Under the pieces are notes generated by a model. That model was given only the letters and a program-made list of their open reading frames with translations. It made no database searches and had not been told where the DNA came from. Of a DNA stretch of 64,000 nt, positions 1,387 to 53,248 are shown piece after piece. Position numbers and translations under genes: made by a program. Each line of letters starts with the position of its first letter. Position 1 is the first letter of the stretch. The stretch is from the NCBI GenBank assembly GCA_030616085.1, contig JAUWYA010000001.1, positions 8,692-72,691 on the forward strand. Direction: 5' to 3'. This DNA comes from Candidatus Nealsonbacteria bacterium. Lineage in GTDB: Bacteria > Patescibacteriota > Minisyncoccia > Minisyncoccales > GWA2-38-27.

Positions 1387-1421
1387 AAAGGTCGGAACTT
1401 AATTAAATTATTTATTATGAA

Positions 1422-1489
1422 CCCCGTTAGAAATTTATGTTAATTAGAATTTCTATTGGGGTAAAAATATATGAGAATTTCTAACGGGG
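1422..1489. mobile_element. Family A element, 68 bp, inserted in an ATGAA start codon
   Basis: CCCCGTTAGAAATT/AATTTCTAACGGGG; TGAA on both flanks; internal in-frame ATG at 1471. Confidence 0.9.
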
Positions 1490-1935
1490 TGAAAAAAACA
1501 AAAATTTTTATTCTAATTTCGCTTTTAGCGGTTTTGGTTTTGGTTGGGGCAATGTGTACAAAAAGTCCTGAAGCTTTTTATAAGAAAGTTTGTAAAACTG
1601 CTATAGATTTTTCAGAGGAGCTGGATGATGTTCTTGACCAAGAATTTGCTCTATTAGACGGAGAAGATGATTTAGACGATTGTATGGATGATATGATTGA
1701 ACAAGAAGAAGACTTGTATGATGAATGCATGGACGAGGAGGATGATGAAGACGTATGCGATGAAGTGATTGAAAATTACCGATTAACCATAGAAAACTTT
1801 CTTACTCGTCAAGGATGTTTGATTATCTACACCTCTTATTGTTCTATGCATCAAGCAACTGGAGAGTATGAGGACTTTAATGAATGTGTAGACGATGTAG
1901 AGGAGGTCTGTAAAACACTTCCAAGGTCATTTTAG
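1471..1935 (+). CDS. Acidic Cys-rich putative lipoprotein
   Basis: Hydrophobic signal ending VGAMC; N-terminal MRISNGV is element-derived. Confidence 0.7.
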   Translation: MRISNGVKKTKIFILISLLAVLVLVGAMCTKSPEAFYKKVCKTAIDFSEELDDVLDQEFALLDGEDDLDDCMDDMIEQEEDLYDECMDEEDDEDVCDEVIENYRLTIENFLTRQGCLIIYTSYCSMHQATGEYEDFNECVDDVEEVCKTLPRSF

Positions 1936-1943
1936 AAACTAAA

Positions 1944-1971
1944 CCCTTCATCTTTAGCTAAAAGTGAAGGG
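1944..1971. repeat. CCCTTCA...TGAAGGG mini inverted repeat with TAAA duplication
   Basis: Same termini and the same TAAA flanks as 8462-8495. Confidence 0.6.
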
Positions 1972-1979
1972 TAAAGATT

Positions 1980-4601
1980 ATGAGAAAATTTAAAATTACC
2001 ATTCCGATTTTGCTTTTGGTTGTTTTGACTTTACCTGCAAATGCATTTGCTAGTACTTTATCTGAAGATATTTTCCCGAAAAACGTAAAAGGGCTTCCTT
2101 TAGCTGAGACTGAAGAGCAAAAGCCAGAAGGAGAAATTGCTGAGGCTTATTGGGCTTTTTACGGGACTGATGATTCAGAAACAGAGATTCTGGTTTTCTT
2201 TTCCAGAATAGAAGGTGAAGAATATCTTAGAACAGCAGTAGAGGATTTTATTGCAGGATTTGAATATGAGACAGTCCAGACATTTGACGGCGTTGAACGT
2301 GAAGATCCGTATGAAGTTTATGTAAAAGATTATAAAGCTACACTTGTTACTTATCGCTTTTATTACTTAGGAGTATATTTTGATGCCGGCCTTGCATTAG
2401 TAGTTGTGGATGATTATTTCATTGCTGTTGAGATGCTTAGTTATACTGGAGAACCTCCTTCTTTTTCAGACCTAAAAGATGTTTTAGGTCTTTTTATTGA
2501 TCAGGTTCCTGGAGAAAAGCCAATTTGCGGCAATACTTATTGTGAACAGGGAGAAACCTGTTCAAATTGTCCCCAGGATTGCAATGCTTGCCAAGAGCTT
2601 TTGCCTGATTTAGAAGTTTCATTTTCAGAAAAGAACATCAAGCTTGAATTAGGAGGAAGCACTACACTTAAGTTAAATATTAAAAATATTGGTCAGGGCA
2701 GGGCTGAAGATGTCTATTACAAAGTTCATGTTGACAAGCCAGAAGTTGTAGATGTTTATCCTCTTCAGGGAACAGTAGGGAATATAGATCCAGGCGAGGA
2801 ATTTTATGATTATATAGGTATTGCAGTTAAAGGTTCAGGCACTGCCTATTTAGCTATTCATATTAGAGGTGATAATATCGGCAGCATGATGAAGTTTATT
2901 CAGGTTAGCGTTCCTGAAGCAGCTGCTTTAGATGTGCCAGAGTCCTTGTTTTTACTGCCAGGTGAATCTCAAGGAATTAGTGTTTTCTTAACTAATGCCG
3001 GTGAAGAGCCAATTCTGGTTGAGGTTTTATCTTTAAAAAGCTTGGATCCTTCAGTAGTTTCTATTGAAGAAGGTTCAGAAATGACAGTAAGCGGCCAAAA
3101 AGGAGGAATTAGACAAGACCAGGTTATTAGCACTGAAAGCATTGATATTACTAACGCTATTTATCCAAAACCAAGAATTAAAGCTAATTCAATAGGAGAT
3201 ACTGAGCTCGTTTTCAAACTTTTATACTATTTTCCAGAGATTTCTATGCATGAAGGCAAGACATTGGAAAAGAGAGTAAAAGTAGGAGTAGGAGAGTCAG
3301 TAGGAGGGGAAAAGCCAGGATTAGAACTTAAGCTAAAGCCGTCTGGCCTGGCTGTAGAAAGGGATGAAGCCAGGAAAGTTGAAGTGATTTTAAACAATAC
3401 TGGAAGCGAGGTAATTAAACAGGGAAAGATTCTTCTTAGCGTTTCCAGAGAAGCTCCGTTTAATGCAACCAGAGAAATAACTTTTGGCTTTATTCGACCA
3501 GGCAGGGAAGCTAAGGCTGAAATTGAGATTATTGGCCATGCTCAATTTCCATCTGGCTTGCAGGGTGATGACTTAGTAGTTACCGGGACTTTAACTTTTA
3601 AAGGCCAGTTTACTACTTTGGATGACAGAGAATTTACTTTTGAAGAGGAGATGAAGGTTTCCTTGGTGGGAGAGAGAGAAAAATGCGACGTTGCAAATGC
3701 TGGATGCATGGAAACAGTTGATTGTTTTGTTTCTCTTTCCAATGAAATGGGCTGTGCTCTTGAGTTTGCTGATGTTGTTCCATATTTTGACAAACCAGTA
3801 GCTGTTGTCTTAGCTACTTCTGATGTATGCGAGATAAAAGACAGGGTAGAGGCAGGAGATCCTATTGGAGCTGCTGTATCCAGTCTTTTAATGACAGTTG
3901 ATTTAGGAGATAATGCTCTTGATGCAGTTCCCGGAGCAGGCAATATATTAGGTGTTTTAACAGATATAGTAGAAGGTTCAGCAGATTGCGTTGAAGGATT
4001 TATCTACGATGCAGTAAATGATTATTGCGCAGGAGGCAGAGGAGGTTATACTGGCTGCGCTAATCGTTTATTTGGATTAATTGCTGAAGAATCAGATAGA
4101 TGGAAAGAGTCGAGATCAGCTACGCATTCAGTAGTAGCTATTGGAGGTTCGCCAATAAGATTATCTGTGATTGATGATAATGGCCAGGAATTAGGTTTGT
4201 CTGACGGAGTCTTAGTTATAGAAAAAGAAGATTTGAAGCTGGTATTTATTAAGAATCCTGAAGAGTTGGACAATGGGTATAATTTCCAGATTAATGGAAT
4301 TGGCGAGGGTACTTACGATTTAGACATTGGCTTGATTTCTGATGGAGAGGTTGTTGAAACAGTTGAGCTTAGAGACCAGGAAATTAATTTAGATGAGGAA
4401 GTTTCAATTCCTTTGGCTGTTAAAGCAGAAGATGGTGAATTAACAGATCTATTTGTTGGTGATGAGGCAATAGAATTTAAAGAAGAGCAGGAAAGAAAAC
4501 CATTAATTCTTTATATAATAATTGGCATAGGTGCTGTTCTGGTTGTCATTATCGCTGTAGTAGTAGTTATAGTTTTAATCAAGAAAAGGAAAAAAACTTA
4601 G
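1980..4601 (+). CDS. Large cell-surface protein (signal peptide, Cys-rich module, CARDB/Ig-like domains, C-terminal TM anchor)
   Basis: ANAFA signal; CGNTYCEQGETCSNCPQDC; LPDLEVS...NIKNIGQG CARDB-like; C-terminal hydrophobic helix plus KKRKK. Confidence 0.7.
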   Translation: MRKFKITIPILLLVVLTLPANAFASTLSEDIFPKNVKGLPLAETEEQKPEGEIAEAYWAFYGTDDSETEILVFFSRIEGEEYLRTAVEDFIAGFEYETVQTFDGVEREDPYEVYVKDYKATLVTYRFYYLGVYFDAGLALVVVDDYFIAVEMLSYTGEPPSFSDLKDVLGLFIDQVPGEKPICGNTYCEQGETCSNCPQDCNACQELLPDLEVSFSEKNIKLELGGSTTLKLNIKNIGQGRAEDVYYKVHVDKPEVVDVYPLQGTVGNIDPGEEFYDYIGIAVKGSGTAYLAIHIRGDNIGSMMKFIQVSVPEAAALDVPESLFLLPGESQGISVFLTNAGEEPILVEVLSLKSLDPSVVSIEEGSEMTVSGQKGGIRQDQVISTESIDITNAIYPKPRIKANSIGDTELVFKLLYYFPEISMHEGKTLEKRVKVGVGESVGGEKPGLELKLKPSGLAVERDEARKVEVILNNTGSEVIKQGKILLSVSREAPFNATREITFGFIRPGREAKAEIEIIGHAQFPSGLQGDDLVVTGTLTFKGQFTTLDDREFTFEEEMKVSLVGEREKCDVANAGCMETVDCFVSLSNEMGCALEFADVVPYFDKPVAVVLATSDVCEIKDRVEAGDPIGAAVSSLLMTVDLGDNALDAVPGAGNILGVLTDIVEGSADCVEGFIYDAVNDYCAGGRGGYTGCANRLFGLIAEESDRWKESRSATHSVVAIGGSPIRLSVIDDNGQELGLSDGVLVIEKEDLKLVFIKNPEELDNGYNFQINGIGEGTYDLDIGLISDGEVVETVELRDQEINLDEEVSIPLAVKAEDGELTDLFVGDEAIEFKEEQERKPLILYIIIGIGAVLVVIIAVVVVIVLIKKRKKT

Positions 4602-4643
4602 ACTTAGCCGGGTTAAGTTTTGTACATAATCTATTTTAAAAAT

Positions 4644-5282
4644 ATGAATAAATTAAAATATATTATTCCATTGCTTTTGGTGGCTTTGGTTTTGAATGGG
4701 GCGAGTTGTGGAGGCGGAAAGAAATCAACTGATTCTGAAGAGGAAGAAAAGGAAGAAAAAACGAATGTTGAAAAGAAATTAACCAGAGACCAGATGAAAA
4801 ATGTTTTACTGAAAACAGCAGCTGATTTGGGCTGGTCTGAAACTGATGTTAAGAGCGCTGGTAGCCAAGGATATGAGTTGAAGAAAGTATATGTTAAGGG
4901 CGAGGATAAAAGTAAATCTGTTATATTAGCAATTACTGAAGTTTCAGATTCTGATTTATCTTCAATACTATCTGGAACTAACAGAAAGACATTTATAAAG
5001 GAATATTGTGAAATACTTACTGATTATGAAGAGGGCAGGGGCGGCAGAACAAGCGATTTAATAGAAATATCAGGATTTGATGCTTGTCATACAATTGAAT
5101 ATATGAGTGTTTGGGGGGATTTGAAAGATTGTCTAGGCCATAGTGATACTATGAGCGTAATAGGACATTACTGGCTTCAGGTTATTTCAAATGCTCTTGA
5201 TGAAAGAGGAGAAGTATGTGATGCAACAGATTCATTGCCAATTGCTGAGATTTTAGTCAATAACCTGTTGGAAGCTTTTTAA
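4644..5282 (+). CDS. Putative lipoprotein
   Basis: MNKLKYIIPLLLVALVLNGASC signal; ATG 4644 preferred over TTG 4620. Confidence 0.65.
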   Translation: MNKLKYIIPLLLVALVLNGASCGGGKKSTDSEEEEKEEKTNVEKKLTRDQMKNVLLKTAADLGWSETDVKSAGSQGYELKKVYVKGEDKSKSVILAITEVSDSDLSSILSGTNRKTFIKEYCEILTDYEEGRGGRTSDLIEISGFDACHTIEYMSVWGDLKDCLGHSDTMSVIGHYWLQVISNALDERGEVCDATDSLPIAEILVNNLLEAF

Positions 5283-5297
5283 TTGTTGTAGATTAAA

Positions 5298-5744: not shown

Positions 5745-5771
5745 AACGAAAAATTAATTAATCTTAAATAT

Positions 5772-6983: not shown

Positions 6984-6989
6984 TATAAA

Positions 6990-7065
6990 CCCTGTAGAAG
7001 AAATTTGACTGCCTTTGAGATTTAGGTTTTCTTTCAGAAAATCTTGTCAAATTTTCTCTACGGGG
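6990..7065. mobile_element. Family A element (CCCCGTAG subtype), 76 bp
   Basis: Near-copy of 1311-1386; TAAA on both flanks. Confidence 0.85.
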
Positions 7066-7105
7066 TAAAGGTCGGGAATTTAGTAATTTTTGTTTAAGTT
7101 ATGAG

Positions 7106-7173
7106 CCCCGTTAGAAATCTTTGTTAATTAGAATTTCTATCGGGGTAAAAATCTATGGAAATTTCTAACGGGG
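7106..7173. mobile_element. Family A element, 68 bp, inserted in an ATGAG start codon
   Basis: Near-copy of 1422-1489; TGAG on both flanks; internal in-frame ATG at 7155. Confidence 0.9.
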
Positions 7174-7730
7174 TGAGGAAATTAAAGTTTATTATTATTC
7201 CGGTTTTGCTTTTAACAGCTTTAGTTTTAATTGGAGCTGATTGCGGAGAAGAAGATAGAAAAAGGTCCAGAGATAAAGATGACGAAGAAGAGAATTATCT
7301 GACTTATAAAAATGAGAAATGGGGATTTGAGATTAAATATCCTGAGGACTGGGAAAAAGAAGAAGAAGATTATAGTTACGACGAATTTACAGTATTTTTT
7401 ATTAGTCCGTTTGAAGATGAAGATGATGAAAATAGAGAAAATCTTCTTGTTTATGCATCAACAGCTGAGCCTGATGATTTTGATGAATTAATGACAGACT
7501 TGATAGCAGATTTGTCAGAGAGTACAACTTTGCTTGATTACGAGAAACTAATGGTATCTGGACATCCAGGATATAAAGCGAGTTATATTTATGATGAGAT
7601 TCAGTATCTGCACTATTTCGTAAATGCGGGCGATACTTGGTATCAAATACTTTATGTTGCTTTAGAGAGTACTTATTCTAAGTATGTAGATCAAGTTGAA
7701 ACAATGATTAATTCTCTTGAGATTAAATAA
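7155..7730 (+). CDS. Putative lipoprotein, PsbP-like domain
   Basis: IGADC; TYKNEKWGFEIKYPEDW and MINSLEIK are typical PsbP-like ends. Confidence 0.7.
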   Translation: MEISNGVRKLKFIIIPVLLLTALVLIGADCGEEDRKRSRDKDDEEENYLTYKNEKWGFEIKYPEDWEKEEEDYSYDEFTVFFISPFEDEDDENRENLLVYASTAEPDDFDELMTDLIADLSESTTLLDYEKLMVSGHPGYKASYIYDEIQYLHYFVNAGDTWYQILYVALESTYSKYVDQVETMINSLEIK

Positions 7731-7733
7731 TAT

Positions 7734-8456: not shown

Positions 8457-8461
8457 TTAAA

Positions 8462-9604: not shown

Positions 9605-10684
9605 ATGAAACAAAAAGGGTTTACCCCGTTAGAGATCAACGAGGCAAAAAATAAATATAAGGCAAGACAATCTCTAACGGGGTTTATTTCCATAAAGCTT
9701 CAGTTAATAATATTGGCTGTGATTTTACTTATAATGTCATTAGAAATAACCGGGCTTGTTTTAGACAGCAAAGGAAAATTATTTCCTTTATTTCGTAAAA
9801 TTTCTTTAGTATTCGCAGGATATAAAGATGCGGGAGGAATTTCAGATGAAGAAGGAAACGGCTTAACTTTCAAACAGGGGCCTGAATACTCAGATGAAGA
9901 AATGGAGAAGAGAATTAAAGAATTAGAGAAAAAAATCAAGGATCTTGAAGAAAATCAGCAGGTTCCCTTTCCTCCTGAAGAATATTTTCTTCCCCCTTTA
10001 ACTCAAGAGCAGATTAGCGCTGTAGTTGAACTTTGGTGTCCTGATGACGATTATAATTACACAGGATATATTAGCATTGGGTCAGGCAGCATTGTCAGTC
10101 CAGAAGGAATTATCATTACTAATAGGCACGTTATTTCAAATGAAGACTGGAGCGTTATTAAATCTACGCCAACTTGTTATGTTGCTGTTACAGATGATAT
10201 CGCCTGGCCGCCCACAGTGAAATATGCGGCTAATTTAATTGCTTACGCGCCTGTAACAGATGATTATTTTGATTTTGATATCGCTATTTTATATATCAAT
10301 GACGTTTGCCGCGAATGTGAGGATGCGCCAAGTTCTCTTCCTTCAAGTTTTTCTTATTTAGATCTTGGTTATTCTGATATTCTTGCGCCTGGAGATTATG
10401 TGGCAATTGCTGGTTATCCTGAAATAGGGGCAGGGACTTTTAATTTTACTGATGGAATAATAAGCGGAAGAGTAGGAGAGTTTGTTTTGAAAACAGATGC
10501 TAAGATTGATTCTGGGAATTCTGGAGGTTCTGCTTTGAATAGCAAGAATCAACTTATCGGAGCTCCTACCTGGACAATTTCAGGCCGGGCAGAAAGCATG
10601 GGCTATGTTATTGGTATTGACCAGGTTGTAGAATGGTATGAAACAAAAGTAGTGCCTTCTGATTCAGTAATAGTGCCTTACTAA
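9605..10684 (+). CDS. Membrane-anchored trypsin-like (S1C) serine protease
   Basis: GSGSIV, TNRHV (His), DIAIL (Asp), IDSGNSGG (Ser). Confidence 0.85.
   Translation: MKQKGFTPLEINEAKNKYKARQSLTGFISIKLQLIILAVILLIMSLEITGLVLDSKGKLFPLFRKISLVFAGYKDAGGISDEEGNGLTFKQGPEYSDEEMEKRIKELEKKIKDLEENQQVPFPPEEYFLPPLTQEQISAVVELWCPDDDYNYTGYISIGSGSIVSPEGIIITNRHVISNEDWSVIKSTPTCYVAVTDDIAWPPTVKYAANLIAYAPVTDDYFDFDIAILYINDVCRECEDAPSSLPSSFSYLDLGYSDILAPGDYVAIAGYPEIGAGTFNFTDGIISGRVGEFVLKTDAKIDSGNSGGSALNSKNQLIGAPTWTISGRAESMGYVIGIDQVVEWYETKVVPSDSVIVPY
9624..9682. mobile_element. Family A element, 59 bp, in frame in the protease gene
   Basis: CCCCGTTAGAGAT/ATCTCTAACGGGG; TTTA on both flanks; 59+4=63 bp. Confidence 0.9.
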
Positions 10685-10685
10685 T

Positions 10686-24140: not shown

Positions 24141-24198
24141 CCCCGTTAGAGATAGGTTGCTATTGGCAATCGTCAGACGTCTTATCTCTAAACGGGGG
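24141..24198. mobile_element. Family A element, 58 bp, inserted in a TTGA(CT) -35-like box
   Basis: CCCCGTTAGAGATA/TATCTCTAAACGGGGG; TTGA on both flanks. Confidence 0.85.
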
Positions 24199-26622: not shown

Positions 26623-28194
26623 ATGGCTTTTAACACAAAAATACTTATTTTTGGAATAACAGCAGTTTTTGCTGGGTTTTTGCTTTATCCTTTTTTATCT
26701 TCCGGCGGGAGTTTGTCTACTGATATTTTCCCATTGGGATTAGAAGGTCTTTCTTTAACATTTGTTGAAGAAGAACCGCCTGATGATGAGATTGCTGAAG
26801 GTTTTTCAGCTTATTATGAAAGCGAAGAAAAAGAAATTGATGTTTTCTTTTGGCGAATGAGAAGCGTATCAATAGCTGAAAGCACAAAACAGGGTTTAAT
26901 CCCTTCTATTAAAGAAGAATACGCTTTATTATTTGATGAGGTTGACTGGGAAAACTCTCAAACATTTTCTGTAGGAGATTACAGCGCTACAGTTATTAGG
27001 TTTAGAGTTTATTTAGGAGGGGATTATTTAGACGGTGGATTTGCATTCGTAGCTGTTAAAGATTATTTTATTCTCATCCAGATTTTCGGCGATGAAAAAC
27101 CTTCTTTTTCAGAGTTTGAAAGGGTTTTAGAAACTTTTGTAAATAAAGTTCCTGAAAACGGAGGTCCTCCGCCTCCGCCAGGAGAGGAAGAGGAAGAAGA
27201 AGAGGAGGAAGAGGAAGAGGAGGAAGAGGAAGAACCAGGCAAAGAGGGGTGTGGAAATAATAAATGCGAATATTGGATAGGAGAAGATTGCAATGCTTGC
27301 AGATATGATTGTGATATTTCAAGTTTTTGCTGTTTGCCTGACTTTTCTTACGTTTATGCCCATGATTATCATAATAAGAATTATGAGATTCATGAACCTG
27401 CTGCTGGTTTAATCCCCAGGGGCGCTATTCTTATTCCAGAAGGAGTAGATGAGGATGATCTTCCATTAGTTGTTCCTAAGGTATGCGATATGGGCATGAA
27501 AATTGGTGAGTGCGTTTATAATTATGATTGTCCGAGCGGGGTTTGTACTGTAGATAATTGGTGCATTAAAACGCATTCAGAGAAATTCCAAGAAGTTAAG
27601 AATCAAGACATGGTTGAGAAGATTTATGAAGATCAGATCAGTTATAAGGAAGAATATGTTGAAGCTTATGAAATGATTGAAGGGGGAGTAGCTCAGGTCG
27701 TTATTAAAGATGCTAAGCTTGATGTTAGATTGGAAGTCCAAGGAAATACAGCTGGCAAGATTCCGAAAGTTAATGAGGGCGATGAAGTTGAAGTTAGATT
27801 AGAGATTGAAAATGATTCAAGATATAATTTGGCTTTAACGGCTGGAATTTTTTACCCAGAAACATTTGATCTTGAAGAAAAAAAATATACCATGAGTTTT
27901 AAATGGGAGGGAGGTCTTTCTTCTCTAATCGGCAGTTTTAAAACTAAACTGGTAAATTGTAAATTTATTGTTATGCCTCCCGGATCCAAACTGATTGTTT
28001 ATTCAAAAGTTATTCCAAAGCAAACTGGATATTTAGATGTCCAGGGCTTGGTTTTCTTTACTACAGAGAAGAAATATAAAGAATATGATCCAGGGTTTTT
28101 AGATGAAGCGCCAAAAGCTTATCAGGAATCAGAAGTTTCTGAAACAATTCTGGTTGAAGAAAGGCCTTGTGATTGGTGGCCTATATGTTTATGA
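26623..28194 (+). CDS. Secreted protein, N-domain paralogous to the 1980 gene, with poly-Glu linker and Cys-rich module
   Basis: LSTDIFP...EIAE...DYSATVIRFR vs LSEDIFP...EIAE...DYKATLVTYR. Confidence 0.7.
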   Translation: MAFNTKILIFGITAVFAGFLLYPFLSSGGSLSTDIFPLGLEGLSLTFVEEEPPDDEIAEGFSAYYESEEKEIDVFFWRMRSVSIAESTKQGLIPSIKEEYALLFDEVDWENSQTFSVGDYSATVIRFRVYLGGDYLDGGFAFVAVKDYFILIQIFGDEKPSFSEFERVLETFVNKVPENGGPPPPPGEEEEEEEEEEEEEEEEEPGKEGCGNNKCEYWIGEDCNACRYDCDISSFCCLPDFSYVYAHDYHNKNYEIHEPAAGLIPRGAILIPEGVDEDDLPLVVPKVCDMGMKIGECVYNYDCPSGVCTVDNWCIKTHSEKFQEVKNQDMVEKIYEDQISYKEEYVEAYEMIEGGVAQVVIKDAKLDVRLEVQGNTAGKIPKVNEGDEVEVRLEIENDSRYNLALTAGIFYPETFDLEEKKYTMSFKWEGGLSSLIGSFKTKLVNCKFIVMPPGSKLIVYSKVIPKQTGYLDVQGLVFFTTEKKYKEYDPGFLDEAPKAYQESEVSETILVEERPCDWWPICL

Positions 28195-28195
28195 A

Positions 28196-28289
28196 CCCCG
28201 TTAGAGATTATGGGGCAAGATAAGAAAATAATATTTATTATTAATTATGGTTCAAATAAAAAAACAAAGAGAAAGAATCTCTAACGGGG
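28196..28289. mobile_element. Family A element, 94 bp, inserted in an ATGA stop/start overlap
   Basis: CCCCGTTAGAGATT/AATCTCTAACGGGG; TGAA on both flanks; internal in-frame ATG at 28247. Confidence 0.9.
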
Positions 28290-28732
28290 TGAAAAACAAG
28301 GTAATAAAGATCATAGTTCCTATCGTACTTGGTTTAGCTGTTTTAGCAGTTATTGTTTTAGCCGTTGTTCTCGGTTTTAAGCTTTTTGGCAGGACATGCG
28401 ATCCTCTTACGCCTCTTGCTTTGAAAAAGTTTGAAATAGCTGGAGGAGTAAGGCCTATTAAGGGTGATAAGTGCGAAATATCTAAAAACAGCTATTTATT
28501 AAGATTATTTTATGATAGTTCTGATCAAGCAGAAACAGCTAAAACAGGATTAGAGCTGGCAACAGTCGGAGATATGGATGAGATTGAAGATCTTGATTGG
28601 ATAACTAATGACGGCGCTTCTTCGGTTTTCTGGACTAATAAAAAGAAATTAGGGATTTTGGTCATTCCCGGCGAGGATTCAAAAAAAGCAGTTGAAAAAG
28701 AATTAGATAAAGCATTCAAAAAATTAGAATGA
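28247..28732 (+). CDS. Membrane-anchored hypothetical protein
   Basis: One TM helix; N-terminal ...ISNGV is element-derived. Confidence 0.65.
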   Translation: MVQIKKQRERISNGVKNKVIKIIVPIVLGLAVLAVIVLAVVLGFKLFGRTCDPLTPLALKKFEIAGGVRPIKGDKCEISKNSYLLRLFYDSSDQAETAKTGLELATVGDMDEIEDLDWITNDGASSVFWTNKKKLGILVIPGEDSKKAVEKELDKAFKKLE

Positions 28733-37221: not shown

Positions 37222-37289
37222 CCCCGTTAGAAGCCGCCCTGCCGAAGGCACGGCTACGGCCGCCTCGGGGCGATCTGCTTCTAACGGGG
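37222..37289. mobile_element. Family A element, 68 bp, GC-rich interior, inserted in a TTGACA box
   Basis: CCCCGTTAGAAGC/GCTTCTAACGGGG; TTGA on both flanks; TTGACA-18-TAAAAT regenerated on the right. Confidence 0.9.
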
Positions 37290-38065: not shown

Positions 38066-38671
38066 ATGCCCCGTAGAGAAATTTCGAAAAACCCCTACAG
38101 GGTAATAATAAGAATTTCGGAGAAATTCTTAATTCGAAATTCTTCTACGGGGATGGATAAAAATAACCTTGTTGAACTTACAAATAAAGTTTATAAACTG
38201 ACTTTGCTTTTTCCTAAAAAAGAACCTTTGAGGTATAAAATAAGGGAAGTTGCTGATGATATTTTAGCTTGTAATTCAAGTTCAAAGAAATTGCAGGAGA
38301 ATTTAGGCGTTCTTAAAAAGTACTTTGAAGTAGCTAAATGGCAGAATTGGGTAAGTTATTTTGATATTTTGGAGATTGAAAAGAAATATGATAAAATTGA
38401 GAAAGGTTTATTAAAACATGCAGAACTTCAGAAAGGTCCGACCTTTGCCAAGATTGACGGGAGTCAGACCTTAGTTAAAACTTTAGATAATAGAAAAGAA
38501 AGGATTTTAGAGATTTTGAAAGAAAAAGAAAGAATTCAGGTTTGGGAGGTTAATGAGATTTTATCTGATGTATCTAAAAGAACCTTGCGAAGGGATTTTG
38601 AGCAATTATTAAAGCAGGGCTTGGTTGAAAGAATAGGAGAGAGAAACAATACTTTTTACCAATTAAAGTGA
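38066..38671 (+). CDS. Four-helix-bundle-like domain plus DeoR-type HTH protein
   Basis: LFPKKEPLRYKIRE; VSKRTLRRDF..L...GLVERIG; original start probably 38153. Confidence 0.7.
   Translation: MPRREISKNPYRVIIRISEKFLIRNSSTGMDKNNLVELTNKVYKLTLLFPKKEPLRYKIREVADDILACNSSSKKLQENLGVLKKYFEVAKWQNWVSYFDILEIEKKYDKIEKGLLKHAELQKGPTFAKIDGSQTLVKTLDNRKERILEILKEKERIQVWEVNEILSDVSKRTLRRDFEQLLKQGLVERIGERNNTFYQLK
38069..38152. mobile_element. Family A element (CCCCGTAG subtype), 84 bp, duplicating an ATG
   Basis: ATG-CCCCGTAGAG...TCTACGGGG-ATG; 84+3=87 bp in frame and stop-free. Confidence 0.8.
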
Positions 38672-46274: not shown

Positions 46275-46294
46275 AGATCCTGTCGGGCTAAGGG

Positions 46295-49036
46295 CTAAGG
46301 AAGAGATTCTAAGAATTCATCTATTTTTTCTCGCCCATGTGTTTTTGGTATTGAATATTGCCAAGCAATGAGGGCTTTTTGTTTTGCTTGGTCATATTCT
46401 TTTATTTCGTAATGAAGATGCGCTAAATTAAAATATAAAGTTCTTAAAAAATTATTTGCTTTTTCTCGAGATTTGGTGTCCGGTGTTGAATATTGCCAAG
46501 CAATTAGACCTTGTTGTTCTGCTTGTTTGAAGTTTTGTGTTATATTATAAGCTTGAGCCAAATAAAAATGATATTGGAAATGGTCATTGTCTAAATCTAA
46601 TATTGATTTAAAGAACTCTTCCGCATCTCCTAATAAGTCCGGAAACAATCTTACTATGTTTAAGGCTCGGTCTCTAGCTTTATCATATTCTCCTATTTCT
46701 TTATAAATGTATGATAAAGAAGCATGATATTGGAAACTTTCTGGGTCTGCCCACGCTATTAATCTGTCATAAACATCAGCTAATCTTTTGTAGATTTCTA
46801 TAAAAAGTTCTTCGTTTTTATCTTCATTTTCAATTGATTCAAATAATTTCATATAAGCTCTTTGTAATTTAAAAAGATTTTTGTCTGAGTTAATATTGTG
46901 CCCCATTTTAATTGATATAGCCATATTTTCATCAGCTTGTTCAAGTTCATTCAAATAAATATGAGCCAGAGCTTTTTTCCACCAGCAGTGTGCTAATTTC
47001 GGATTTAAATTAATGCATTGTTCTGCTTTTTCTTTTGCTGTTTGGTATTTTCCAGAAATAAAGTCACTTTCTATCCAACCAAGAAAGACTTCTTCACGTT
47101 TAGGGCTTAATTCGTGAGCTCTTTGATAGCAAGCATCAGCTTCTTTTTCTAATTCTTCAACACTCTCTATTTTAAGGATGTCTTTGTTTCCAATCAAAAT
47201 ATTTAAATAGCTTCCAAGAGAAATCCATGTTCTGGTATAATTAGGCCTTAGGTCTTTTAATTCTCTTAAGATTTCAACTGCTTTTGGGGCTAAGACGTAT
47301 TTTCTTTCCATATTTTGTTCTAGGCAATCTTTAATAATATCAAGATATTGAAGCCGGACATAAGTGTCTACAATGCTATGCGAAGAAAGAATACTGTCTA
47401 TTTTTTCTACTGCTTTTTCACACTGTTTTCTTTCTGAATAATAAATAGCCCAATTTAATTCTTTATTAATCTCCAAGGGTTTTAAAGCTCCAAGCCAAAT
47501 AAACAAAACTAATACACAAAATAGTCCAAATATTAATCCAGATTTCCACAGAGGACTATCAGAGACTGGGTCTCTGTTGATTAACAGAGACCGGGTCTCT
47601 GTAAGCTCATTATTTTTTTGAATAAGAAATAAAGAATAGCCAACTAAAAGAAAGAAAATTAGATAAGTAGAAAAACTATCAAAACTGAAAAAATTAGCTG
47701 TTAAATAACCAATAAAAACAGCTTGAATTCCATGGCAGATTAAAGCATCATTAGGATTTTTTGTTTTTAGTTTTTGTAATTGCCAGAATAATGCGGCAAA
47801 AAGAGAAAGATAGATTATTAAAGCGGGAATGCCTGCTTCAATTGCAATATCAAGTATAAAATTATGGGCTCTATCCCACCAAATGCGGGATAATCCTGGA
47901 AGACGAGGGTCATAATGTTTATCAAAAGCTACTGAAAAATTTTCTGGACCCCAACCAAGAATAGGTCTTTCTTTTATTGCCTCAATACTAACTTTCCAGG
48001 CAGAGAAACGCGCTTCTTCAAAGATTAATTCAAACGAAAGCCGAGGGGCAATTGTTTTTAATGTTCTGTTATTTTCAACAAATTCAGGAAGCTGGTCTTG
48101 TGTATTCACAAAGTAAATACTGCCAACAATTAAAAATAAGGCAATGACAGTTATAATTTTTAGTAAAAGTATTTTTTTTGAGCGGTTTTTTACCCCGTTA
48201 GAGATTTGTTTATTTTGTGGTTCTTCTTTTTTTTGGTAACCTCTAACGGGGTACAAGAGAAAGAAATAAAGAAAACCAATTATTAAGCCGAGATAAACAG
48301 CTCTGGCTTTTATGATTAGAATAACAAAAATAAACAATGCGATTACTGAAAAATAAAAGAATTTTTTTAGATATTTTTTTTCTTTTACCCCGTTAGAGAT
48401 TTGTTTATCTTGTGCTTTCTCTTTATTCTCAGAATCTCTAACGGGGTTTAAACCAAAAGATAAAGCTAAAAATACTAAGAACAAAAGATACATAGCTAAG
48501 AATATTGAATTTCCAAAACTTGCTGCAGGTCTTCCTGTAGAGGAGATAAGATATTCTTTGAAAACCTCAAAATATTGAAAGATGGCCATAATTGAGGCTA
48601 AAGCACCGATAACTAAAGTAAAGCCCCAGATTTTTTGCCAATCTTTTTTTCTGATAATCAAAAAAGCCAAAATAGCAAAAATTATATAAAGAGAAAAGTT
48701 TAAAAACCCGCCTGCTCTATATGGAGATTCCCAAAAACTGTAATAAGGGTCTTTAGAAAAAATAGTTGCTAAGAGGAAAATTCCCCAGAGGGTTATCAAT
48801 AACCAGAAAGGCCAGAAAACCTTATTTTTTCTATCTAATAAATCCTTAAAATTTATCTTGATTTTTTTAGAAATAATCTTCCAAATAAGAAAGAAAAGCA
48901 AACTAGAAACTATAATTCTAAAAACAAGAGCTTTTCCCCAGGCAGCTGGATGAAACATAGGAGGAACAGCAAGCAAGGGCAAAGCTAAAATCACAAAAAA
49001 AGCAATTAGATAGATTTTATAGGACTTGTTATCCAT
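46295..49036 (-). CDS. O-antigen ligase family protein with TPRs (tandem paralogue)
   Basis: Highly similar to 43923-46274, with two ...ISNGV insertions and extra TPRs. Confidence 0.85.
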   Translation of the reverse strand: MDNKSYKIYLIAFFVILALPLLAVPPMFHPAAWGKALVFRIIVSSLLFFLIWKIISKKIKINFKDLLDRKNKVFWPFWLLITLWGIFLLATIFSKDPYYSFWESPYRAGGFLNFSLYIIFAILAFLIIRKKDWQKIWGFTLVIGALASIMAIFQYFEVFKEYLISSTGRPAASFGNSIFLAMYLLFLVFLALSFGLNPVRDSENKEKAQDKQISNGVKEKKYLKKFFYFSVIALFIFVILIIKARAVYLGLIIGFLYFFLLYPVRGYQKKEEPQNKQISNGVKNRSKKILLLKIITVIALFLIVGSIYFVNTQDQLPEFVENNRTLKTIAPRLSFELIFEEARFSAWKVSIEAIKERPILGWGPENFSVAFDKHYDPRLPGLSRIWWDRAHNFILDIAIEAGIPALIIYLSLFAALFWQLQKLKTKNPNDALICHGIQAVFIGYLTANFFSFDSFSTYLIFFLLVGYSLFLIQKNNELTETRSLLINRDPVSDSPLWKSGLIFGLFCVLVLFIWLGALKPLEINKELNWAIYYSERKQCEKAVEKIDSILSSHSIVDTYVRLQYLDIIKDCLEQNMERKYVLAPKAVEILRELKDLRPNYTRTWISLGSYLNILIGNKDILKIESVEELEKEADACYQRAHELSPKREEVFLGWIESDFISGKYQTAKEKAEQCINLNPKLAHCWWKKALAHIYLNELEQADENMAISIKMGHNINSDKNLFKLQRAYMKLFESIENEDKNEELFIEIYKRLADVYDRLIAWADPESFQYHASLSYIYKEIGEYDKARDRALNIVRLFPDLLGDAEEFFKSILDLDNDHFQYHFYLAQAYNITQNFKQAEQQGLIAWQYSTPDTKSREKANNFLRTLYFNLAHLHYEIKEYDQAKQKALIAWQYSIPKTHGREKIDEFLESLP
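47560..47602. repeat. Family C palindrome pair in frame in the CDS
   Basis: CAGAGACTGGGTCTCTG and ACAGAGACCGGGTCTCTGT. Confidence 0.7.
48193..48251. mobile_element. Family A element, 59 bp, in frame
   Basis: CCCCGTTAGAG/CTCTAACGGGG; flanks TTTA and TACA (imperfect). Confidence 0.85.
48388..48446. mobile_element. Family A element, 59 bp, in frame
   Basis: CCCCGTTAGAGATT/AATCTCTAACGGGG; TTTA on both flanks; absent from the paralogue. Confidence 0.92.
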
Positions 49037-49060
49037 ATTTTTTTATGATATATTAAATTT

Positions 49061-49825
49061 ATGAAATTGTCTAATTACAAAGCAGTTATTTTGGCTGGGG
49101 GAAAAGGGACACGTCTTTATCCAGTAACAAAAGAAATTCCCAAACCTTTGCTTCCAGTAAAAGGAAAACCGATTATTAATTATTTAGTTGATTTGTTTAG
49201 AGAGGAGGGAATGAAAGATATTGCTGTTTTAATCAATAAGGATTTTAGAGAAGATTTTGATTGGTGGAAGAAAAGGTATTACCCTTCGGATTCCTCAGGG
49301 CAAGTCCCTAATATTAAATTAGTAGAAGAAAAAGAACCATTAGGTACTTTTGGAGGTCTTTATCTTTTAAAAGATTGGCTCTTCCCTCCTTCATCGGGAC
49401 AAGCTGAAGCATTTTTTATGACTAACGGTGATGAGTTAAAAAGAATTGATTTAAAAAAAATGGCAGGATTTCACCAGAAATTAAAGACGCCAGCCACAAT
49501 AGCATTAGTAAAGGTTCCTGACCCTCAGCATTATGGAGTAGTGGTGTGTGAAAATGGCAAAGTAAAGAATTTCCTAGAAAAGCCAGACAATCCCGTATCA
49601 AACTATATTAATTCAGGTCTTTATTTATTAAAGCCAGAGATTTTGGAAGACCTGCCTCGCGGCAAGGCGGGCTATCCCGGACCTAAATTCTTAATGATAG
49701 AAAAAGATATTTTTCCAAAATTAGCTAAAGAAAATAAATTAGCAGGTTTTAAATTTCAAGGAAAATGGACAGATTGCGGCACCTGGGAACGATATGAAAA
49801 GGCGCTAAAGGGTTGGAACTCTTGA
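49061..49825 (+). CDS. Sugar-phosphate nucleotidyltransferase family protein
   Basis: ILAGGKGTRLYPVT..IPKPLLP, NGD, FLEKP, WTDCGT. Confidence 0.9.
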   Translation: MKLSNYKAVILAGGKGTRLYPVTKEIPKPLLPVKGKPIINYLVDLFREEGMKDIAVLINKDFREDFDWWKKRYYPSDSSGQVPNIKLVEEKEPLGTFGGLYLLKDWLFPPSSGQAEAFFMTNGDELKRIDLKKMAGFHQKLKTPATIALVKVPDPQHYGVVVCENGKVKNFLEKPDNPVSNYINSGLYLLKPEILEDLPRGKAGYPGPKFLMIEKDIFPKLAKENKLAGFKFQGKWTDCGTWERYEKALKGWNS

Positions 49826-49850
49826 CAATGTATTCAAATAAAGATAATAT
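49822..49850 (+). promoter_or_regulatory. Sigma70-type promoter of the riboswitch operon
   Basis: TTGACA-17-TAATAT. Confidence 0.65.
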
Positions 49851-49870
49851 ATATTAAAGCATTTTAAAAA

Positions 49871-49935
49871 TGGATGGGAAAGTTCGGTGAAAATCCGAGA
49901 CTGTGCCGCAACTGTTAAAGTCAGAATACCATCCG
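49871..49935 (+). ncRNA. Compact cobalamin riboswitch
   Basis: GGGAA-GTTCGGTGAAAATCCGA-CTGTGCCGCAACTGT-AAGTCAGA core, closed by GGATGG/CCATCC; DUF4430-like genes downstream. Confidence 0.85.
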
Positions 49936-50034
49936 CACAATATTAACTTCTTTTCTTCGAGCTAAAGAGAAAGATTAACCCGCCAAAATTTAGGCGGGAT
50001 AATCTCTTTCACTCGAAAAGAGATTTTTTAATTC

Positions 50035-51858
50035 ATGAAAATAAAAAAGAAAATTTTAATTGTTTATTTAGCCATACTTTTAGCTGTCTTAATTGGATTG
50101 GGTAATTTTTTTGAAGTTTGGTCAGAAAGCCAATCAGAAATTGATAAAGCTATAAACTATCTTAAAGCTCAGCCTCAAACCGCCTGGGCCACTATGGCTT
50201 TGGCCGGAGCTGGAGAAACCGAGATTGATTTAAATCATCTAAAATCTGTTCCTTCTGGCCAAGAGTCAGCTACTACCTATGCAAAGTATATTTTAGCTTT
50301 AGTAGCAGTTGGCAAGAATCCCTCTAATTTTGGAGATGAAAATTATGTAGAGAAACTAAAAAGTTTTTATCAAGATGGGCAATTCGGTGAGAAAAATTTT
50401 ATTAATGATGATATTTGGGCAATTTTAGCCTTGGCTTCAATTGGTCAGAAAAATTTAGCAATAGTTCAGGATGCCAAAGATTATATTTTGAGCTATCAAA
50501 ATTCAGACGGAGGATGGAGTTATGATATTTCTTTTTCCTCTTCTGATACCAATGATACTGCTGCTGCCATTATGGCCCTGCTTGAAGCAGGAGTTTCTTC
50601 TTCTTCATCAGCTATCCAGAATTCTATTAGTTTTTTGAAATCTCAACAAAATGATGATGGTGGATTTTCTTATCTTGCAGATTCGCTTTCCGATTCTTGC
50701 TCTGATGCCTGGGTAATTTCAGCTATTTATAAATTGGGACAGGATCCTTTCAGCTCAAATTGGACAAAAAATGGGAAAAACGCTTTAGACCATCTCAAAT
50801 CTTTACAAGATGAAGATGGCGGTTTCTGGTGGCAATCTGAAGGGGATAACAAATTTTGCAGTTCTTATGCTTTGGTTTCCTTATTAATGAAGTATTATCC
50901 GATTGAAACAATTTATAATAAGCATCACTTAAGAATTGAAGATCAGGATAGCACTATTTGTGATACTGAGATTAATGGCGGCACTGCTATGGATTTGATA
51001 ATTAGAGGTTCGGAGATATGTAATTACGATTACTTAATTAGTGAGTATCCTGGAATAGGTCTTTATTTGGCAGAAATAAATGGTCAGGCCAACTGGATGT
51101 ATATGGTAAACAATATTTCTCCTATGATAGGAGCAGATAGCTATTACTTAGAAACTGGAGATGAGGTTTTATGGTTTTCTGGAGCATGGTTAGAGAAAGG
51201 TTGGTTTCCAACTAAGCTTGAATTATTTAAAACCGAAAATTTAGCCACTTTTCAAGTAAAATATTACGATTCCGCAGCTAATAATTGGCAAAATTTAGAA
51301 ATACAAGGAATAAAAGTAAAGATTGGCGAGTCAGAATTTATTACTAATGATACAGGACAAATTGAAGTTTCTTTAACAGGTTTAGAAGCTGGTTTTTATC
51401 AGGTATTTGTTGAAACCCAGATTATTGATGAAAAAGGTTATATTAGAAGTGAAAAAGTAAATTTAACAACTGGAGAAGTTCCTAAAGAACATGGAGTGGG
51501 ATTAAAAGTAGAGATTGAAAAAATAGAAGTTCCTCCTGGAGGAGAACAAGAAGCAATTAGTTTTTCAGTAAGTTCAGATAGTTTGGATTTCGGAAAATTA
51601 AAACCAGGAGAAAGCTCTACTCAAAATTTGACCATTGACAATGGAGAGAGTAGAATTTATTTAGAAGCGGAAGTAAATGGAGCTAGTGTTTTTCAAGACA
51701 ATTTAGAAATAGATGAAAAATTTTGGCAATTTTTCTCAACTGAAATTGAGAAAAACCAAGAGAAGTCTTTCCCAGTCAAATTAACTATCCCATTTAATTA
51801 TGATGGAGATTTTGGCCAACAAGAGGGGGAATTAACTTTTTGGGCAATTAAAAAATGA
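50035..51858 (+). CDS. Surface protein with prenyltransferase/squalene-oxidase-like repeats plus DUF4430-like domain (putative B12-binding)
   Basis: YQNSDGGW, QQNDDGGF, LQDEDGGF repeats; WMYMVNN.SP.IGADSY.L..GDEVLW. Confidence 0.75.
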   Translation: MKIKKKILIVYLAILLAVLIGLGNFFEVWSESQSEIDKAINYLKAQPQTAWATMALAGAGETEIDLNHLKSVPSGQESATTYAKYILALVAVGKNPSNFGDENYVEKLKSFYQDGQFGEKNFINDDIWAILALASIGQKNLAIVQDAKDYILSYQNSDGGWSYDISFSSSDTNDTAAAIMALLEAGVSSSSSAIQNSISFLKSQQNDDGGFSYLADSLSDSCSDAWVISAIYKLGQDPFSSNWTKNGKNALDHLKSLQDEDGGFWWQSEGDNKFCSSYALVSLLMKYYPIETIYNKHHLRIEDQDSTICDTEINGGTAMDLIIRGSEICNYDYLISEYPGIGLYLAEINGQANWMYMVNNISPMIGADSYYLETGDEVLWFSGAWLEKGWFPTKLELFKTENLATFQVKYYDSAANNWQNLEIQGIKVKIGESEFITNDTGQIEVSLTGLEAGFYQVFVETQIIDEKGYIRSEKVNLTTGEVPKEHGVGLKVEIEKIEVPPGGEQEAISFSVSSDSLDFGKLKPGESSTQNLTIDNGESRIYLEAEVNGASVFQDNLEIDEKFWQFFSTEIEKNQEKSFPVKLTIPFNYDGDFGQQEGELTFWAIKK

Positions 51859-51859
51859 G

Positions 51860-51940
51860 CCCCGTTAGAAATCCAAAAAAGATTCTAAAGGGGAAATATT
51901 ATGCTTCAAAAACTCAGAAATTCTAAAATTTCTAACGGGG
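51860..51940. mobile_element. Family A element, 81 bp, in an ATGA stop/start overlap
   Basis: CCCCGTTAGAAAT/ATTTCTAACGGGG; TGAG on both flanks; internal GGGG plus in-frame ATG at 51901. Confidence 0.9.
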
Positions 51941-52485
51941 TGAGAAAAATTCTATTAATCTTAATAATAATTTCTTTTTTAGCTGCTAATTCTGTTCAAG
52001 CGGTGGCAGTTAAAGTTAAGCCATCTGAAATAAAAATTGAAGCCAATGCAGGAGTTTTGATTGAACATGAAATAATAATAGAAAATCCGGGTGAAAACGT
52101 AGCTTTGTTTGAAGTTTATTTAGACAATTTTTCTGATTGGATCAAAGCAAAACCAGAAAGTTTTGTTTTAGAAAGTGGAGAAATGCAAAAAGTAATTTTA
52201 GAAATTAAAAATGAAGAGATAGGGGTCTTTTCTACTATGATTTCAGTAGTAGCTAAATCTTTATCTGAAAGGAAGTTTAAAGCCAATTCCGGAGTGAAAA
52301 TCCCCTTGGAAATTAGAGTTATTCAAAGAGAGGAATCAAATTTTTTAGCTGCTGTTTCCCAAAACATTAAAAGATTTTTGGATTCAAGGAGCTTAATTTT
52401 TGTTTTTAGCATAATTTTAGTTTTGGTTTTAGCCATAATTTGCATAAAGAGGCGTAAGAGCATATTAAAAGATGAACCCCGTTAG
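51901..52485 (+). CDS. Secreted Ig-like protein with C-terminal TM
   Basis: Signal peptide, V.P..I...IENPG pattern, C-terminal anchor; start and stop are both supplied by family A elements. Confidence 0.65.
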   Translation: MLQKLRNSKISNGVRKILLILIIISFLAANSVQAVAVKVKPSEIKIEANAGVLIEHEIIIENPGENVALFEVYLDNFSDWIKAKPESFVLESGEMQKVILEIKNEEIGVFSTMISVVAKSLSERKFKANSGVKIPLEIRVIQREESNFLAAVSQNIKRFLDSRSLIFVFSIILVLVLAIICIKRRKSILKDEPR

Positions 52486-52754
52486 AGATTAGCGATATGT
52501 TTTATACTTACGTAATACAAAGCAAAAAAGACAGAAAATGGTACACTGGCTATACTGAAGATTTACGGAAACGCTTTAATCAACATAACTCTAATGAGGT
52601 TTATTCAACAAAAAATAGAGGACCGTTTGAGCTAATTTATTATGAAGTATGTTTAAATTCACAAGATGCAAGGTCAAGAGAAAAATATTTAAAAACTGGG
52701 ATGGGAAAGCGCTATCTTAAAAATAGATTAAAGCGTTTCCTATCTCTAACGGGG
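52477..52754 (+). mobile_element. Family A element, 278 bp, carrying only a GIY-YIG nuclease gene
   Basis: 13-bp perfect TIR CCCCGTTAGAGAT/ATCTCTAACGGGG; TGAA on both flanks (52473-76, 52755-58). Confidence 0.9.
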
Positions 52755-52757
52755 TGA
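52497..52757 (+). CDS. Stand-alone GIY-YIG nuclease, 86 aa
   Basis: FYTYVI...WYTGYT.DL.KR..QHN...TK.RGPFELIYYE...A..RE.YLK. Confidence 0.92.
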   Translation: MFYTYVIQSKKDRKWYTGYTEDLRKRFNQHNSNEVYSTKNRGPFELIYYEVCLNSQDARSREKYLKTGMGKRYLKNRLKRFLSLTG

Positions 52758-53248
52758 AAAAAAATATTAAAATAATTATATGGATTGGAATATTTCTAAT
52801 TTTAGTTGCTGGAATAATTTTTACCCCGTTTAGAGATTATATGACAGGGCTAAAAAACAGAGCAGACAAATCTCTAACGGGGTTTATCTTTCAAGACAAA
52901 GTTGATCTTGAAGAGGAATCTAATAATCAAGTATTAGAAGAAAGCACAATAAGCGTAATTTTAATTATTGATTATGGCGATGGAATCTCTCAAGACTTTG
53001 ATATTGAGTTTGTTGAAGGAATGACCGCCTTTGATTTGTTAAATGATAGGGCAGAGGAATTAAGCTTGGAAACAAAAGCATATGACATTGGAATTCTTAT
53101 AGAGGCAGTTGGGGATAAAAAGAATGGACAAGATGGAAAATATTGGCTATATTATATAAATGGAGAGATGCCTATGGTTTCAGTTGATAATCTGAAAATT
53201 AACCCTGACGATAAAGTAGAATTTAAATTTGAGAAATCACCATTTTAA
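52754..53248 (+). CDS. DUF4430-domain membrane-anchored protein
   Basis: TAFDLL, GILIEAVG...NGQDGKYWLYYING, DKVEFKF; GTG start created by element end plus TSD. Confidence 0.8.
   Translation: MKKNIKIIIWIGIFLILVAGIIFTPFRDYMTGLKNRADKSLTGFIFQDKVDLEEESNNQVLEESTISVILIIDYGDGISQDFDIEFVEGMTAFDLLNDRAEELSLETKAYDIGILIEAVGDKKNGQDGKYWLYYINGEMPMVSVDNLKINPDDKVEFKFEKSPF
52824..52882. mobile_element. Family A element, 59 bp, in frame
   Basis: CCCCGTTTAGAGATT/AATCTCTAACGGGG; TTTA on both flanks. Confidence 0.9.

Follow-up and report, generated by a model that had tools for sequence, protein, structure and literature searches.

The locus studied here raises the question of why several unrelated genes carry the same inverted-repeat sequence precisely within their start codons, and from which codon these genes are then translated. 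The copies in question lie on a stretch of 64,000 nucleotides from a Candidatus Nealsonbacteria genome, hereafter referred to as the window (contig C1, positions 8692-72691, of genome G000, which comprises 740 kb in 35 contigs with 33-36% G+C). A previous interpretation based on the letters of the window and their open reading frames (ORFs), termed here the sequence-only reading, had placed five such copies in ATGA(A/G) starts at positions 1417, 7101, 28191, 51855 and 52472. Based on the comparison of genomes, metagenome contigs and protein families presented below, we propose, with a probability of about 0.7, that these copies belong to a mobile family with inverted-repeat ends that inserts with a 4-bp target duplication behind the A of ATG(A/G)(A/G), that is likely moved by a small nuclease, and whose host genes are likely now started at an ATG within the element or, where this is lacking, at a GTG rebuilt at its right end. 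The earlier observation is confirmed by the analysis, and its interpretation is partly supported.

All five junctions were found as the sequence-only reading had described them. Each copy is bounded by 13-bp terminal inverted repeats (CCCCGTTAGARAT / ATYTCTAACGGGG), and the order across the junctions is ATGAA or ATGAG, followed by CCCCGTTAGA(A/G)AT ... AT(T/C)TCTAACGGGG and finally TGAA or TGAG, with the 4-bp target duplication beginning at the T of the ATG. The predicted GTG, composed of the element's last G and the duplicated TG, is present in five out of five window copies; in copies of G000 with TCCC...GGGA ends, ATG is rebuilt instead of GTG. Such ends are far more frequent than expected by chance: allowing for up to two mismatches, the 13-mer end occurs 30 times in the window compared to 1.77 expected occurrences, and perfect 10-mer ends were counted 158 times genome-wide versus 0.6 times in shuffled sequences. 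The four gene-less window copies carry the in-frame ATG ascribed to them, and the ORFs started there (1471, 7155, 28247 and 51901) continue into the host genes with no intervening stop. From the original ATG there now runs a short ORF (MNPVRN... or MSPVRN...) ending within the element, the exceptions being two copies in G000 that are open throughout. Both targets regarded as ATGA stop/start overlaps were recovered as such, with the upstream ORFs still ending on TGA. Furthermore, left ends had been thought to donate stop codons to the genes before them; this holds for ORF 51901-52485, which is terminated by a TAG (52483-52485) in the left repeat of the 278-bp copy, but not for position 53281, where no repeat end is nearby, and the case proposed for lgt was not located. 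The copy at 38066, for which a duplication of the ATG itself had correctly been noted, has an ATG on both sides and belongs to a second repeat family; its frame is open from the first ATG into a gene ending at 38671. Folding predictions for the mRNA pair the repeats into a stem of 13-16 bp (-22 to -33 kcal/mol for a stretch of about 110 nt), placing the internal ATG in or beside the loop and the rebuilt GTG at the 3' base of the stem. No Rfam family matches the elements at gathering thresholds, the sole match in this search being an AdoCbl-II riboswitch. Coordinates of these start-codon copies in the window are compiled in Table 1.

Table 1. Elements located in start codons of the window, with the genes into which they are inserted (window coordinates).
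Feature	Position	Strand	Details
Start-codon insertion 1	1417..1493	+	ATG 1417-1419; TGAA duplication 1418-1421 and 1490-1493
Insertion 1, element	1422-1489, 68 bp	+	decayed inner right end 1449-1461; in-frame ATG 1471; GTG 1489-1491
Insertion 1, host gene	to 1935	+	secreted or membrane protein, no clear Pfam family
Start-codon insertion 2	7101..7177	+	ATG 7101-7103; TGAG duplication; GTG 7173-7175
Insertion 2, element	7106-7173, 68 bp	+	inner end 7133-7145; internal ATG 7155
Insertion 2, host gene	to 7730	+	PsbP-like
Start-codon insertion 3	28191..28293	+	in ATGA stop/start overlap; GTG 28289-28291; host gene to 28732
Insertion 3, element	28196-28289, 94 bp	+	internal ATG 28247; upstream ORF 26623-28194 retains TGA
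Start-codon insertion 4	51855..51944	+	in ATGA overlap; GTG 51940-51942; host gene to 52485
Insertion 4, element	51860-51940, 81 bp	+	internal ATG 51901; upstream ORF 50035-51858 retains TGA
Start-codon insertion 5, gene-bearing	52472..52758	+	ATG 52472-52474; GTG 52754-52756 of DUF4430 gene (to 53248)
Insertion 5, element	52477-52754, 278 bp	+	GIY-YIG ORF 52497-52757, 86 aa
Second-family copy	38066..38155	+	ends CCCCGTAGAG...CTACGGGG; 84 bp, 38069-38152; ATG 38066-38068 and 38153-38155

Evidence that these sequences were inserted was sought in two genomes of the same genus as G000 (G001 and G002), in the further relatives G004, G008 and G017, and in metagenome contigs. The gene carrying insertion 1 begins with ATGAAAAAAAC in both G001 (L090) and G002 (L091), the upstream sequence being otherwise the same, whereas that of insertion 2 begins with ATGAATAAATTA in G002 (L094) and that of insertion 3 with ...ATGATGAAAGGC in G001 (L098). 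Searches of the five relatives yielded no orthologue of the 51901 gene; the 52754 gene had a single match, partial and distant, in G004. For these two genes, empty sites are provided by a 3170-nt contig of metagenome run X3, which is approximately 90% identical to the window and skips 51856-51940 (85 nt) and 52473-52754 (282 nt) as well as 52820-52882 (63 nt), with 4, 3 and 4 letters, respectively, common to the joint sides. The segment 51856-51940 (85 nt) is likewise skipped by a contig of run X2. Moreover, the occupied sites of rplC and of the D-Ala-D-Ala carboxypeptidase gene, both on other contigs of G000, lack an element in G001 and G002. Each of the five copies in the window is an insertion. 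Copies of the second family located at 1311-1386 and at about 6990-7065, ahead of the 1417 and 7101 genes, are also absent from G001 and G002.

In total, 85 paired copies were detected in G000, of which 68 are flanked by a perfect 4-bp duplication. Duplicated tetranucleotides are mostly of the TNNA type (TAAA/TTTA in 22, TGAA/TTCA in 20 and TCAA/TTGA in 10 cases; TGAG, TGGA and TAGA in three each). Gene calls and site classes were derived from simple ORF rules, and the automatic labelling misassigned a few copies in both directions. An ATG directly precedes the duplication in 24 copies of G000, namely two with a full GIY-YIG nuclease gene, one with a truncated GIY-YIG gene at a contig end and 21 others; three further start-codon copies were recognized by eye (C1:96976, C5:6145, representing a TTG start, and C33:29530). 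Altogether, about 24 gene-less and at least four GIY-YIG copies occupy ATG(A/G)(A/G) starts behind the A, and every start-codon copy in G000 lies in sense orientation. The length classes are placed as follows: both complete 278-bp copies and, under the strict automatic rule, 21 of the 45 copies of 60-160 bp are on starts, while copies of 58-59 bp are found within long unbroken ORFs in the window (9624-9682; 48193-48251 and 48388-48446 in the minus-strand ORF 46295-49036; 52825-52882). Since a 59-bp copy together with its 4-bp duplication adds 63 bp, i.e., 21 codons, the reading frame is kept in coding-sequence copies.

In order to evaluate the preference for start codons, TGAA, TGAG and TGGA sites were counted in the G000 sequence after in silico excision of the elements, taking first-ATG gene starts as starts. 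This resulted in 319 start, 2239 intergenic and 18,044 coding sites. Among the copies with such a duplication outside coding sequence, 24 of 27 are located on starts, compared to an expected share of 12.5% (binomial p=4e-19); the survival of harmless insertions alone is therefore insufficient as an explanation. The suggestion of the sequence-only reading that the element is selected to be harmless thus does not suffice, as intergenic TGRR sites, which are presumably neutral and seven times as numerous as start sites, are almost unoccupied. The base before TGAA plus left end is an A in 14 of 19 cases versus 26% in the background. Furthermore, flanks in five other genomes comprise twelve ATGAA sites versus a single other site, which is GTGAA, although three of these five genomes had been picked for having ATGAA hits.

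Several start codons were found to be occupied in more than one genome. The start of rplC was hit separately in G000 (82 bp) and in G008 (131 bp, a different subfamily). At the PolX start, G000 harbours an 81-bp gene-less copy (C20:44685-44765) and G001 (L109, C5) a GIY-YIG element with other ends (CCCTCACGACC...), the TGAA duplication being present in both. The start of the D-Ala-D-Ala carboxypeptidase gene is occupied in G000 and G017 by copies of 64 bp each. A single ancient orthologous insertion behind the two carboxypeptidase copies was considered and set aside, as neither G001 nor G002, which are of the same genus, carries an element there; separate insertion or repeated precise loss are both possible. 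In the rplC gene of G004 (L017), a different insert, CCCCG...CGGGG, has a copy of the start region (ATGAAATTTATTCTTGG) on either side.

To describe the distribution beyond G000, at least 120 stretches containing the 15-mer ATGAA plus left end were considered from a collection of species-representative genomes; because this sample was chosen by ATGAA, it cannot measure start-codon enrichment. A complete element with TGAA duplication is present in 93 of the 120 listed loci, giving 95 elements in all, and at least 120 loci match. According to the record titles, most of the listed loci are from Patescibacteria and some are from Omnitrophota and Planctomycetota. Downstream of 75 of the 95 elements there is an ORF of 50 codons or more, many N-termini looking familiar by eye only, and in 14 of the 95 the frame is open from the original ATG onwards. 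Among 400 other genomes sampled evenly across the phylum, 14 contain the exact 15-mer, and within the taxonomic family of the host the repeat was found in 10 of 18 genomes searched.

The genes downstream of the elements are alive as judged by their protein families. Outside the window, 18 of 21 downstream ORFs match Pfam over their length, including ribosomal proteins L3 (rplC), L13 (rplM) and L35 (rpmI), PGK, FtsZ, a PBP transpeptidase, two class II tRNA synthetases, TsaD, a Mur ligase, YceG, MgtE, PolX and NeuB. The host genes are intact, and many of them are essential. The gene adjoining the C29 copy is a putative RNase H, as read from its N-terminus. Regarding translation initiation, G000 has almost no Shine-Dalgarno (SD) signal: an SD-like word precedes 17.6% of 533 native starts versus 11.7% of random sites, and native leaders are A/T-rich (A-rich at -3 to -11, T at -1). 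The GGGG interpreted by the sequence-only reading as SD-like is indeed positioned 9, 9 and 7 nt upstream of three element ATGs in the window, none being found before 28247. However, in view of the weak SD signal of the genome and of the location of GGGG within the decayed inner repeat end (1449-1461 and 7133-7145), it does not represent a credible SD sequence.

Start contexts were additionally scored by means of a position matrix (position weight matrix, PWM) built from native G000 starts. Median scores amount to 4.5 for element ATGs and 3.4 for native starts, compared to -3.1 for other ATGs and -1.2 for the rebuilt GTG, and 18 of 19 element ATGs rank within the top 7% of non-start ATGs. An internal in-frame ATG is present in 18 of the 21 ATG-flanked G000 copies without a full or truncated GIY-YIG gene. 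Counting all ATGs in the last 60 nt of the elements, 20 are in frame versus 7 and 4 out of frame in G000, and 43 versus 15 and 19 in the wider sample. Neither random-frame ATGs nor decaying downstream genes, named beforehand as findings that would contradict the proposal, were seen, as the ATGs are mostly in frame and the host genes intact. In the PGK, YceG and L35 genes of G000, by contrast, the rebuilt GTG is the sole in-frame start ahead of the conserved N-terminus. Judged by these sequence features, the internal ATG and the rebuilt GTG are probably both used, depending on the subfamily. The idea of a portable initiation module fits the ATG-bearing subfamilies, whose start contexts score like native ones, and not the family as a whole. 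With regard to the proposed uncoupling within operons, the short leftover ORF still starts in the original ATGA overlap, and translational coupling could therefore equally be relayed.

Some results weigh against the proposed interpretation. A motif beyond ATGAA that would distinguish hit from other starts was looked for, and none was found. Copies of 58-59 bp share their ends with the gene-bearing copy, and 23 of 30 are located in coding sequence at TTTA, TAAA or other TNNA sites, indicating that the machinery is not limited to start codons. Moreover, an internal in-frame ATG occurs in only 40 of the 95 copies of the wider sample and in 2 of 18 members of the subfamily of about 130 bp, which makes the start module a subfamily trait rather than a family trait. 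The absence of an extended target motif and the 58-59-bp copies, whose numbers in coding and intergenic sequence (23 and 6 of 30) roughly follow the amounts of such sequence, would fit an alternative in which insertion takes place at any TNNA and targeting is only apparent, because copies breaking genes have been lost. We consider this unlikely, since the far more numerous intergenic TGRR sites contain 3 copies and the start sites 24, all start-codon copies share the sense orientation, three start codons were hit separately across genomes, different subfamilies or families being involved in two cases, and the second repeat family also resides on starts with a different duplication, TATG. The least probable explanation considered is that of a conserved host leader, i.e., a regulatory mini-ORF (MNPVRN...) with a hairpin preceding many genes. 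The uniform beginning of the leftover ORF, MNPVR or MSPVR throughout, and the stability of the hairpin would agree with such a leader, but the peptide is the translated repeat end, 4-bp duplications are present, precise empty sites exist in close relatives for the five window copies, rplC and the carboxypeptidase gene, and Rfam contains no match to the elements.

The part of the proposal concerning the working start codon competes with two further explanations. If translation began at the rebuilt GTG in every copy, the internal ATGs being incidental, the regeneration of GTG in each copy ending in G would be accounted for, as would PGK, YceG and L35 of G000 and the subfamily of about 130 bp elsewhere, for which no other in-frame start is available. 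This generalization nevertheless appears rather improbable: the context of the GTG does not resemble that of a start, its first position is where the pairing of the 13-16-bp stem ends, and internal ATGs are in frame beyond chance and in native-like contexts. Neutralization at the RNA level, by removal of the element from the mRNA or by ribosomes skipping the hairpin, with translation still beginning at the old AUG, would take advantage of the predicted fold, which sets the old AUG and the rebuilt GUG on the two sides of the stem base. Splicing signals and a known RNA family are lacking, however, and in-frame ATGs in native context would be left unexplained, so that this mechanism is regarded as very improbable. 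Two RNA runs of the same study contained hardly any matching words, and run X9 contributed no matching sequence. The data are best described by host proteins that would start at the element's in-frame ATG, or at the rebuilt GTG where this ATG is missing.

The sole gene found in the family encodes a protein of 86 amino acids. This protein matches the GIY-YIG domain (PF01541) over residues 1-68 with 60.1 bits at a cut-off of 22.6 (E 2.7e-16); the three overlapping Pfam matches (GIY-YIG, T5orf172 and DUF1363) all fall on this single GIY-YIG region. Its closest solved chain is the UPF0213 protein 1ZG2 (E 7.6e-08), and NCBIfam yielded only a group I intron endonuclease match below threshold. In G000, the nuclease protein was matched six times, corresponding to two complete copies, three contig-end pieces and one paralogue (56% identical) of the second family. 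At least four GIY-YIG copies thus belong to the first family, the complete ones being located at window positions 52477-52754 and at C26:3059-3336. Right ends are visible in four of these copies, the two complete ones and two 3' pieces, and each of them adjoins a gene start in sense orientation. The ORF is bracketed exactly by the repeats, which form hairpins on each side of the gene, and in the window copy (ORF 52497-52757) its stop codon is the duplicated TGA, which overlaps the rebuilt GTG of the host gene in a GTGA overlap. An internally deleted copy of 121 bp (C20:42287) retains the first and last codons of the GIY-YIG gene. The pairing of enzyme and repeats, the exact bracketing and this deletion derivative argue, short of proof, for the nuclease as the mobility enzyme. 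In contigs of runs X1 and X2 near window positions 52580-52732, several deleted or rearranged versions of the GIY-YIG element were observed, with skips of 91-255 nt. Because of these versions, the sequences suggest that gene-less derivatives may be arising on an ongoing basis.

Comparable arrangements were found in other repeat families. The second family (ends CCCCGTAGAG...) possesses its own GIY-YIG gene (G000:C33:19784-20029), and its TATG duplication copies the entire start codon. In relatives, other small GIY-YIG genes lie between other inverted repeats: the family with ends CCCTCACGACC... is found in ATGAA starts with a TGAA duplication, and a separate family in G024 (L111, L124) duplicates TTGA at TTGACA. 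Small GIY-YIG genes ending in or within tRNA genes were also observed (L106, L110, L116 and L118, from G014, G019 and G024); in L118, the 5' part of the tRNA is repeated on both sides.

According to the proposed mechanism, the 86-residue nuclease of the 278-bp copies would move the family by cutting element ends and TNNA-type targets, possibly acting on hairpins in single-stranded DNA (ssDNA) by analogy with the Ssn nucleases discussed below. The gene-bearing form would live off host transcription and translation by means of the succession of leftover ORF, nuclease ORF and GTGA overlap. As it offers no room for a promoter, it would depend on host gene expression, and this dependence would reward landing on start codons. 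Gene-less copies may persist on starts by bringing a start module or by leaving a usable GTG, and the observed bias would reflect a real site preference combined with the loss of harmful copies.

In the literature searched, from which subscription journals were largely outside, no account was found of these ends, of GIY-YIG elements with target duplications or of start-codon insertion by bacterial transposons. The start-codon elements represent a real, widespread and apparently undescribed variant of the biology of terminal inverted repeats and MITEs (miniature transposable elements with inverted repeats). A lone GIY-YIG domain is not known to serve as a transposase. Small nucleases acting on ssDNA hairpins, with many hairpin repeats as non-autonomous partners, are familiar from the IS200/IS605 and REP/RAYT systems, which differ from the present family in that their HUH enzymes form covalent intermediates and insert beside a tetranucleotide with no target duplication. 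Correia elements are an example of bacterial MITEs with a parent insertion sequence. Terminal inverted repeats, a short duplication, many gene-less and few gene-bearing copies as well as effects on the expression of neighbouring genes are features shared with MITEs (PMC10969869). In contrast to these, no DDE or HUH transposase is encoded here: the only gene is that of an 86-residue GIY-YIG nuclease, the complete gene-bearing unit measures 278 bp, and insertion is preferentially into the start codon.

Among published systems, the closest one found is Ssn/NTS, in which single-domain GIY-YIG nucleases that are site-specific for ssDNA are flanked by hairpin repeats (Nat Commun 2025, PMC11893778). 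Both systems combine a tiny single-domain GIY-YIG gene (<150 amino acids; 86 here) located between hairpin inverted repeats with many gene-less repeats, and the authors of that study likened the repeat-gene-repeat arrangement to an insertion sequence and brought IS200/IS605 and REP/RAYT into their discussion (PMC11893778). The likeness to the Ssn family (cd10448) is one of layout. The available text of that account proposes a domesticated role in transformation and contains no target duplications, empty sites or start-codon location (PMC11893778). Furthermore, Neisseria REP2 and Borrelia IR sequences are dispersed repeats directly before genes that bring a ribosome-binding region and an ATG (PMC3184786). 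The present element likewise supplies an initiation codon in native-like context directly before the gene. REP2, however, has no terminal inverted repeats and brings a promoter, and start-codon insertion with duplication is not shown for it (PMC3184786). Rickettsia palindromic elements (RPEs) resemble the family in being palindromic repeats tolerated in genes as in-frame additions (PMC10969869), as are the 59-bp copies with their 21 additional codons and the two start-codon copies read through in frame. There is no sequence relation between the two, RPEs are not reported at start codons in the text available (PMC10969869), and the start-codon class described here has an architecture of its own.

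A more far-reaching view, to which we would tentatively give slightly less than even odds, is that these are the smallest known self-contained elements (about 280 bp with one GIY-YIG gene), widespread, apparently undescribed and homing actively to start codons. They would couple themselves to host transcription and ribosomes through the short ORF and the GTGA overlap, and their gene-less offspring would replace the starts of essential genes with a portable leader plus ATG across Patescibacteria, Omnitrophota and Planctomycetota. Should the site preference prove real, the start codon would constitute the niche of a mobile element, which is unreported for bacterial transposons in the literature searched. 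Gene callers will misassign the N-termini of many genes in uncultured bacteria, producing MNPVR... stubs, ...ISNGV extensions and GTG starts. Genes for ribosomal proteins, FtsZ and tRNA synthetases evidently tolerate a hairpin-forming insert of 60-280 bp in their start, providing a natural test bed for translation initiation in bacteria without SD signals. Moreover, the nuclease-repeat pairs may yield new sequence-specific nucleases.

Further observations concern the diversity of the repeats. A subfamily with a G+C-rich core (window positions 24141-24196, 37222-37289 and 54483-54510) is always inserted in TTGACA behind the A of TTGA, and through the duplicated TTGA its right end is again marked by a TTGACA (-35-like) box. 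Paired changes of both termini (TCCC...GGGA or GCCC...GGGC) were observed at C5:9937-9997, C26:3059-3336, C1:82361-82423, C22:11492-11553 and C7:296-364; these joint changes look as if one end had been copied from the other, or as if pairing were required. Nested copies also occur, with a second element residing inside the ATGAA start carried by the first (L157; G000:C10:23835-23990). Finally, the AdoCbl-II riboswitch mentioned above (window positions 49861-49941, 54 bits) precedes the operon containing insertions 4 and 5.

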